Source: Escherichia coli
GTDB lineage: Bacteria > Pseudomonadota > Gammaproteobacteria > Enterobacterales > Enterobacteriaceae
Assembly (NCBI RefSeq): GCF_003334255.1
Contig: NZ_QOWU01000254.1
Reading direction: 5' to 3' (one strand)
DNA length: 357 bases
In this document: one piece after another, positions 1 through 357 of the stretch
Layout: the number at the start of each line of letters is the position of its first letter
Position numbering within the stretch: the first letter of the stretch is position 1
Notes under the pieces: model-generated
Seen by the model: only the letters and a program-made list of their open reading frames with translations
Database searches by the model: none
Told to the model about the DNA's origin: nothing
Made by a program: the position numbers and the translations under genes

Positions 1-240
1 GAACCCCAGAAAGCGGGGATCGCGTCATTCTGTCCGTACAACATTGGTCCCGGTAAGTGTTTCCCGTCGACGTTTTATAAACGAATTAATGCAGGCGATC
101 GCAGGGGGGCGTGTGAGGCGATTCGCTGGTGGATTAAGGACGGTGGCAGAGACTGCCGTATTCGCTCAAACAACTGTTACGGTCAGGTATCCCGTCGCGA
201 CCAGGAGAGTGCGCTGGCGTGCTGGGGAATTGACAGATAA
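1..240 (+). CDS. rrrD: Phage/prophage endolysin (T4-type lysozyme, glycoside hydrolase family 24), 5'-truncated by the window edge; only the C-terminal 79 codons plus stop are present
   Basis: Seen in sequence: frame 1 is open from base 1 to TAA at 238..240 and translates to EPQKAGIASFCPYNIGPGKCFPSTFYKRINAGDRRGACEAIRWWIKDGGRDCRIRSNNCYGQVSRRDQESALACWGIDR*. GC is about 55% here versus about 44% downstream. Established knowledge (recalled, not searched): this closely resembles the C-terminus of the RrrD/RrrQ-type lysozymes of lambdoid prophages in E. coli and relatives, and the stretch TFYKRINAGDRRGACEAIRWW aligns with the conserved C-terminal region of T4 lysozyme. The gene symbol is family-level only; the exact paralogue or host phage cannot be determined from this fragment. 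The catalytic Glu/Asp/Thr residues and any signal or SAR segment would lie upstream of the window. The ORF track omitted this frame because it contains no ATG/GTG/TTG in-window. Confidence 0.85.
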   Translation, partial: EPQKAGIASFCPYNIGPGKCFPSTFYKRINAGDRRGACEAIRWWIKDGGRDCRIRSNNCYGQVSRRDQESALACWGIDR

Positions 241-357
241 GCAGAATATTTTGCTGAAAAATGCGGTTTGCTCACACGGGCGGATAACACGAAATCCTGC
301 GAACTGACAAAAACTAAGTGAATAAAAGTAAAAACCCCGTTTGTTGGCTGCAAGCGG

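Follow-up and report, generated by a model that had tools for sequence, protein, structure and literature searches.

The 3' end of a predicted SAR endolysin gene, overlain by a shadow reading frame, in a 357-nucleotide stretch of Escherichia coli prophage DNA

Which reading frame is coding in this stretch of E. coli DNA (357 nucleotides, analysed whole and hereafter named the window), and what does it encode? The ORFs listed for it were 44..307 (plus strand, frame 2, TTG start), 75..173 and 183..353 (both on the minus strand). Upon translation of the window, frame 1 is free of stop codons over bases 1-237 and closes with a TAA at 238..240. A previous sequence-only reading had proposed that frame 1 carries the C-terminus of a phage lysozyme whose gene starts upstream, out of sight of a start-dependent ORF finder. 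The ORF lister did return only the three ORFs above, and frame 1 was invisible to it because it omits ORFs that run off the end of the source. A run of 79 stop-free codons has a chance of about 2%, by (61/64)^79, but frame 2 is open for even longer, so that ORF length cannot choose between frames; the choice was made by homology and by the pattern of substitutions. On this basis, bases 1..240 are, with a probability of about 0.96, the 3' end of R, the gene for a 177-residue SAR-type GH24 muramidase of a lambdoid (Stx-phage-like) E. coli prophage. The features of the window are the following:

1..240, plus strand: 3' end of endolysin gene R, codons 99-177 of 177 plus the stop codon (homology, RefSeq CDS, third-position bias)
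238..240, plus strand: TAA stop codon of R (translation and RefSeq CDS end)
44..307, plus strand: frame-2 ORF of 87 aa with a TTG start, a shadow ORF over R and not a gene
183..353, minus strand: ORF of 56 aa with a TTG start, not a gene
241..330, plus strand: non-coding spacer after R, left end of the R-Rz insert (no annotated feature, no Rfam family above threshold)
331..357 (331..363 in full), no strand assigned: first 27 bases of a 33-base perfect hairpin, AAAACCCCGTTTGTTGGCTGCAAGCGGGGTTTT, which is cut by the window end and followed by a T-rich tract

The 79-residue translation of frame 1 matched the Pfam family PF00959 (Phage_lysozyme) with an E value of 4.5e-9 and a score of 37.2, over model positions 68-125 of 125, i.e. 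at the C-terminal end of the domain. Among PHROG families it matched phrog_7 (endolysin), with E values of 4.2e-28 for the 79-aa fragment and 2.4e-62 for the full protein. The truncated lysozyme C-terminus proposed earlier was thus found in the frame, and with the stop, that had been given for it. The fold predicted from these matches is secure, and muramidase activity on peptidoglycan is predicted from membership of the GH24 family. No NCBIfam family scored above its cut-off for R, for its neighbours S and Rz or for the small ORFs of the locus; the sole match of R was BgtA, at 68.9 bits for a cut-off of 315, and no curated equivalog model names R. Nothing contradicts the identification of the gene.

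Substitutions point to the same frame. R was recovered from ten further loci (97% to 67% DNA identity), belonging to E. coli, Shigella-type Stx phages, and Klebsiella and Yersinia phages, and aligned by codon. Over the window part, positions 1, 2 and 3 of the frame-1 codons carry respectively 46, 41 and 324 of the 411 substitutions found in these ten homologues. The third-position bias is present in 10 out of 10 pairwise comparisons, the counts of which are phylogenetically non-independent and inflate a chi-square p-value. Read in frame 1, 315 substitutions are synonymous and 96 non-synonymous, that is 77% synonymous, where random mutation would give 22%.

Seven complete E. coli chromosomes match the window at 100% identity, and in all seven the match is labelled 'lysozyme'. 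The upstream part was examined in one of the seven, E. coli STEC17-183, where the window occupies positions 6001..6357 of the locus studied (L001; coordinates below refer to this locus when so stated). The corresponding RefSeq CDS, WP_062863247.1 'lysozyme' (177 aa, L001 5707..6240), ends at window base 240. It is an intact ORF whose start lies 294 bp before window base 1 and which is not interrupted by an in-frame stop; this agrees with the upstream start that had been proposed. The full-length protein contains the catalytic triad E35-x8-D44-x5-T50. These residues are encoded upstream of the window, and residues 99-177, encoded by the window, form a C-terminal lobe devoid of catalytic residues. 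All three catalytic residues are kept in 11 homologues, of which the most distant has 67% DNA identity; in L009 a one-residue insertion brings the Asp-Thr spacing to x6. The catalytic Glu, Asp and Thr, an upstream holin gene and possibly an N-terminal SAR or signal segment had been expected from an extension of the window; Glu35, Asp44 and Thr50, a holin gene and a SAR-like N-terminal segment were recovered in STEC17-183.

The gene order in L001 is three tRNA genes, a SASA-family esterase gene, DUF1378 and DUF826 genes, a class II holin gene, a DUF1327 pseudogene, a minus-strand gene, the lysozyme gene, two small ORFs, a 'lysis protein' gene, then terminase, portal and protease genes. The holin (L001 4659..4874) belongs to the P21 S family (PF04971 'P21 holin S', E 8e-33) and shares 93% identity with S of H-19B. 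The 'lysis protein' is Rz (L001 6737..7195; Rz-like spanin phrog_13, 6e-74), and an ORF for an Rz1-type lipoprotein with a lipobox is embedded in it (L001 6948..7133). Holin, endolysin and two-component spanin therefore follow the lambdoid S-R-Rz/Rz1 order, on one strand and upstream of the terminase genes, and DNA is inserted into this cassette at two places, S-R and R-Rz. The locus belongs to a lambdoid prophage in the chromosome, whose terminase and portal genes follow downstream. In one respect the sequence-only reading has to be corrected: it had taken the window for the distal end of a lysis cassette. The Rz/Rz1 spanin genes lie about 500 bp beyond the R stop, which gives the window a middle position in the cassette, the order being S - R - insert - Rz/Rz1.

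R is an already known gene: it is annotated in RefSeq and GenBank, its cassette is a textbook one, and the endolysin subfamily to which it belongs has been described and in part characterised. The R genes of Stx phages H-19B and 933W and of prophage Qin (rrrQ), all coding for 177-aa lysozymes, are the same gene as that of the window, with the same length, the same stop position and the same order, S upstream and Rz downstream. R of H-19B is 95% identical to the window in DNA, over its whole length, and differs at 2 of 79 residues; rrrQ is the RefSeq label of several of the 99.7% matches. The differences between these genes and the R of the window are allelic only, and it is the R-Rz segment that varies between lineages. 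Of 5,426 complete E. coli genomes, 3,987 contain relatives at 80% identity or more, nearly always on the chromosome. Matches were also found in 333 phage records, mostly of Stx-converting phages and including gene R of H-19B, and in 32 plasmid records. In the six other genomes with an identical window, the whole 1,151-bp segment from R to Rz is 98.5-99.3% identical and its annotation unchanged.

A rival reading is that frame 1 descends from an endolysin gene but is now decaying within a defective prophage, its expression or function lost. In its favour, several copies (at up to 12 places in one genome) are found in most E. coli genomes, a good many lambdoid prophages are cryptic, L001 has the DUF1327 pseudogene as a neighbour of R, and the window alone does not show the 5' part of R. 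In STEC17-183, however, R is full-length with all its catalytic residues, and the S, Rz, Rz1, terminase, portal and protease genes around it are intact. The window copy itself has no frameshift, and its divergence from H-19B R is the two residues mentioned above. We therefore consider a decayed gene very unlikely, and retain R as an intact endolysin gene.

The N-terminal part of R bears on how the enzyme would reach the peptidoglycan. Residues 8-24 (GLSAAVLALIAAGASAP) consist for 65% of Ala, Gly, Ser or Thr, with K4 and K6 ahead of them; over 15 residues, the Kyte-Doolittle mean of this N-terminal segment reaches at most 2.05. A weakly hydrophobic N-terminal transmembrane segment, rich in Ala, Gly, Ser and Thr and placed after 1-3 basic residues, is the mark of a SAR segment (PMC9239132), and the N-terminal segment of R fits this description. 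Its basic-plus-hydrophobic character persists across the 11 homologues, including the most distant, at 67% DNA identity. The first cysteine of R is C52, the SAR segment having none. A gene of the P21 pinholin family is present upstream of R in L001, as expected of a SAR endolysin paired with a pinholin. Stx-phage R proteins have been predicted to be R21-like SAR endolysins paired with pinholins (PMC8136144, PMC10462455), and S of H-19B has been classed as a pinholin (PMC10462455). R of 933W has been used as a SAR endolysin, and its expression rounds up cells (PMC9239132); the plasmid of that study comes from a thesis (Kuty 2011, as referred to there).

By analogy with R21 and 933W R, the SAR mechanism of R would comprise export, tethering and release on depolarisation. 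Sec would export R during late gene expression, and the weakly hydrophobic N-terminal segment would tether it, inactive, to the inner membrane. Upon depolarisation of the membrane by the P21-type pinholin S, the segment would exit the bilayer and R would refold, then cut the MurNAc-GlcNAc bond of peptidoglycan. Disruption of the outer membrane by the Rz/Rz1 spanin would follow.

The same N-terminus (basic residues, hydrophobic core, A-S-A) also resembles a Sec signal peptide, and R might instead be a lysozyme secreted with a cleaved signal peptide, or a cytoplasmic, holin-dependent one, rather than a membrane-tethered SAR endolysin. Against cleavage, Pro24 comes directly after A-S-A, i.e. at +1, and a Pro at +1 blocks signal peptidase I. 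The hydrophobic core is moreover rich in Ala, Gly and Ser, like SAR domains. The holin paired with R is of the P21 pinholin family, and a folded enzyme does not pass through the small holes that pinholins form (PMC10462455, PMC8136144). R of 933W, closely homologous, behaves as a SAR endolysin (PMC9239132). Taken with these points, both forms of non-tethered lysozyme appear quite improbable, and a SAR endolysin remains the preferred reading of R.

Among SAR endolysins of known structure, the prototypes of the R21 type, R21 itself (PDB 3HDE, 3HDF) and RrrD of DLP12 (4ZPU), share with R the GH24 family, the E-x8-D-x5-T motif and a Cys-free SAR-type segment. Sequence matches to R have E values of 6e-16 over residues 12-174 for R21 (3HDE) and 1e-15 for RrrD (4ZPU), and the P21 S-family pinholin partner is common to the R21 system and to the R of the window. 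R21 is nevertheless distant from R. The SAR segments of the two proteins are unrelated in sequence and share little; that of R21 contains Gly-Gly, which is missing from the N-terminal segment of R. In addition, the window part of R has a 7-residue insertion (IRSNNCY), holding C157, that is absent from R21. The best solved-structure match is 7M5I, an endolysin of an E. coli O157:H7 phage (E 8.4e-22 over residues 35-158), an alignment that begins past the N-terminal segment of R.

None of the eight cysteines of R varies among the 11 homologues, even at 67% DNA identity. C109, C118, C150 and C157, all four inside the window part, are lacking in both R21 and 7M5I. These cysteines of the subfamily probably form periplasmic disulfides. 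The Cys codons of the window are 31..33, 58..60, 112..114, 154..156, 175..177 and 220..222, i.e. residues 109, 118, 136, 150, 157 and 172.

Disulfide isomerisation or caging, as in P1 Lyz and Lyz103 of ERA103, requires a cysteine inside the SAR segment. Control of this type is excluded for R on sequence grounds, because no cysteine occurs before residue 52, and this candidate was discarded. The likeness to these two enzymes is confined to a GH24 catalytic domain and SAR-type export (Xu et al. 2004, as cited in PMC9239132), the latter predicted for R.

We next turn to the ORF that the start-dependent finder did report on the plus strand. Read in the frame of 44..307, the substitutions split into 28 synonymous and 370 non-synonymous (n=398), that is 7% synonymous, compared with 27% expected at random, and 13-14 of 65 residues are changed at just 92-93% DNA identity. 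Between two and four in-frame stops interrupt the ORF in the six most distant homologues (L006-L011), the TTG start has become TCG in L009-L011, and no Shine-Dalgarno-like sequence is found in the 20 nt upstream of the TTG. The frame-2 ORF does match two PHROG families, phrog_30041 (E 5.4e-30) and phrog_34797 (E 2.6e-20), both of 'unknown function', and some phage records (H40, H63, H76) have a 'hypothetical protein' annotated under the match. The simplest explanation for these matches is that the same ORF has been called in some closely related phage records; the two families probably owe their existence to mis-called ORFs that overlap the endolysin gene. That 44..307 is a real gene, replacing or overlapping frame 1, is thus hardly credible in spite of its being the sole plus-strand ORF of the list and of its family matches, and as a true overlapping gene it was ruled out by the substitution pattern, the stops and the lost start codon.

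The longer of the minus-strand ORFs, 183..353, has no PHROG match even at E<=1. A stop interrupts its R-overlapping part in 7 of the 10 homologues, and it is unannotated in every record examined.

Downstream of the R stop, bases 241..357 are non-coding and form the start of the mosaic insert that separates R from Rz. In mEp460, vB_EcoS-640R1, PhiR42_1, YeP4 and ST11-VIM1phi8.1 the two genes overlap by 4 bases, and homology to phages with this overlap ends at about window position 245-250. With the 933W/Sakai-type lineage, which has an antirepressor-like gene in its R-Rz segment, identity is about 87% over the approximately 90 bases that follow the R stop. The hairpin at the end of the window has a perfect 14-bp stem flanked by an A run and a T run, and lies between R and the next gene. 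It folds at -21.6 kcal/mol with a z-score of -3.4 (-2.5 on the minus strand), and looks like an intrinsic terminator in both orientations. The terminator scan reported this site (L001 6331..6363), one site being found for 1.2 expected in shuffles. When bases 236..357 of the window were folded whole, the z-score was -1.0, no different from shuffles, and only the terminal hairpin stands out. L004 and L005, of the 933W/Sakai-type lineage, have at the same position another hairpin of different sequence, also with a T run behind it. In a late operon under Q antitermination, transcription would normally read through such a terminator. A promoter scan of L001 5600..6800 gave nothing above shuffle expectation, and an Rfam scan of L001 4500..7600 at E<=1 gave no family above threshold. 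One match to the rimP leader (L001 6307..6395, minus strand), at 27.5 bits for a gathering score of 47 and with E 0.13, was rejected as due to chance, arising from the terminator-like stem.

From these elements one might suppose that disulfides of C109, C118, C150 and C157 help to inactivate the tethered enzyme or to stabilise the released one and, separately, that the R-Rz hairpin acts as a terminator setting the endolysin:spanin transcript ratio. We regard this proposal as speculative and rather unlikely. If true, cysteine control would be a third mode of control of SAR endolysins, besides refolding of the R21 type and thiol exchange of the P1 type. The extra cysteines and the hairpin may simply be structural disulfides and the leftover boundary of a mobile insert.

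R is in other respects a routine component of the lysis cassette beside the Shiga-toxin region of lambdoid prophages, where lysis releases the toxin, and this picture is unchanged. Beyond routine are the four invariant, subfamily-specific cysteines and the 7-residue insertion in the window part, as well as the shadow ORF of R, which has entered a protein-family library under the label 'unknown function'. This case also has a value for quality control, as a start-dependent ORF track misses genes cut by an edge and can substitute a shadow ORF for them.

The layout upstream of the cassette is that of Stx phages, with a methyltransferase gene, tRNA-Ile/Arg/Arg, then a nanS-p-like SASA esterase gene. 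The stx genes are absent from their usual position in L001, the gap between tRNAs and esterase (L001 981..1950) being about 970 bp with no ORF above 118 aa. Here at least, the prophage is a relative of Stx phages that lacks stx.

A second mosaic insertion within the lysis cassette occupies L001 4878..5595, between holin and endolysin. It holds the truncated DUF1327 pseudogene and the minus-strand gene, which matches phrog_2572 and is annotated DUF1823 in PhiR12_1. S and R are 4 bases apart in the Sakai-type phage. In the R-Rz insert of L001, the two small ORFs, 6397..6579 (60 aa) and 6594..6725 (43 aa), begin respectively 40 and 237 bases past the window end. They match phrog_1115 and phrog_4906, both of 'unknown function', and each has a strong Shine-Dalgarno sequence and one hydrophobic stretch. 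As predicted small membrane proteins, their products could modulate lysis timing in a pinholin/SAR cassette.
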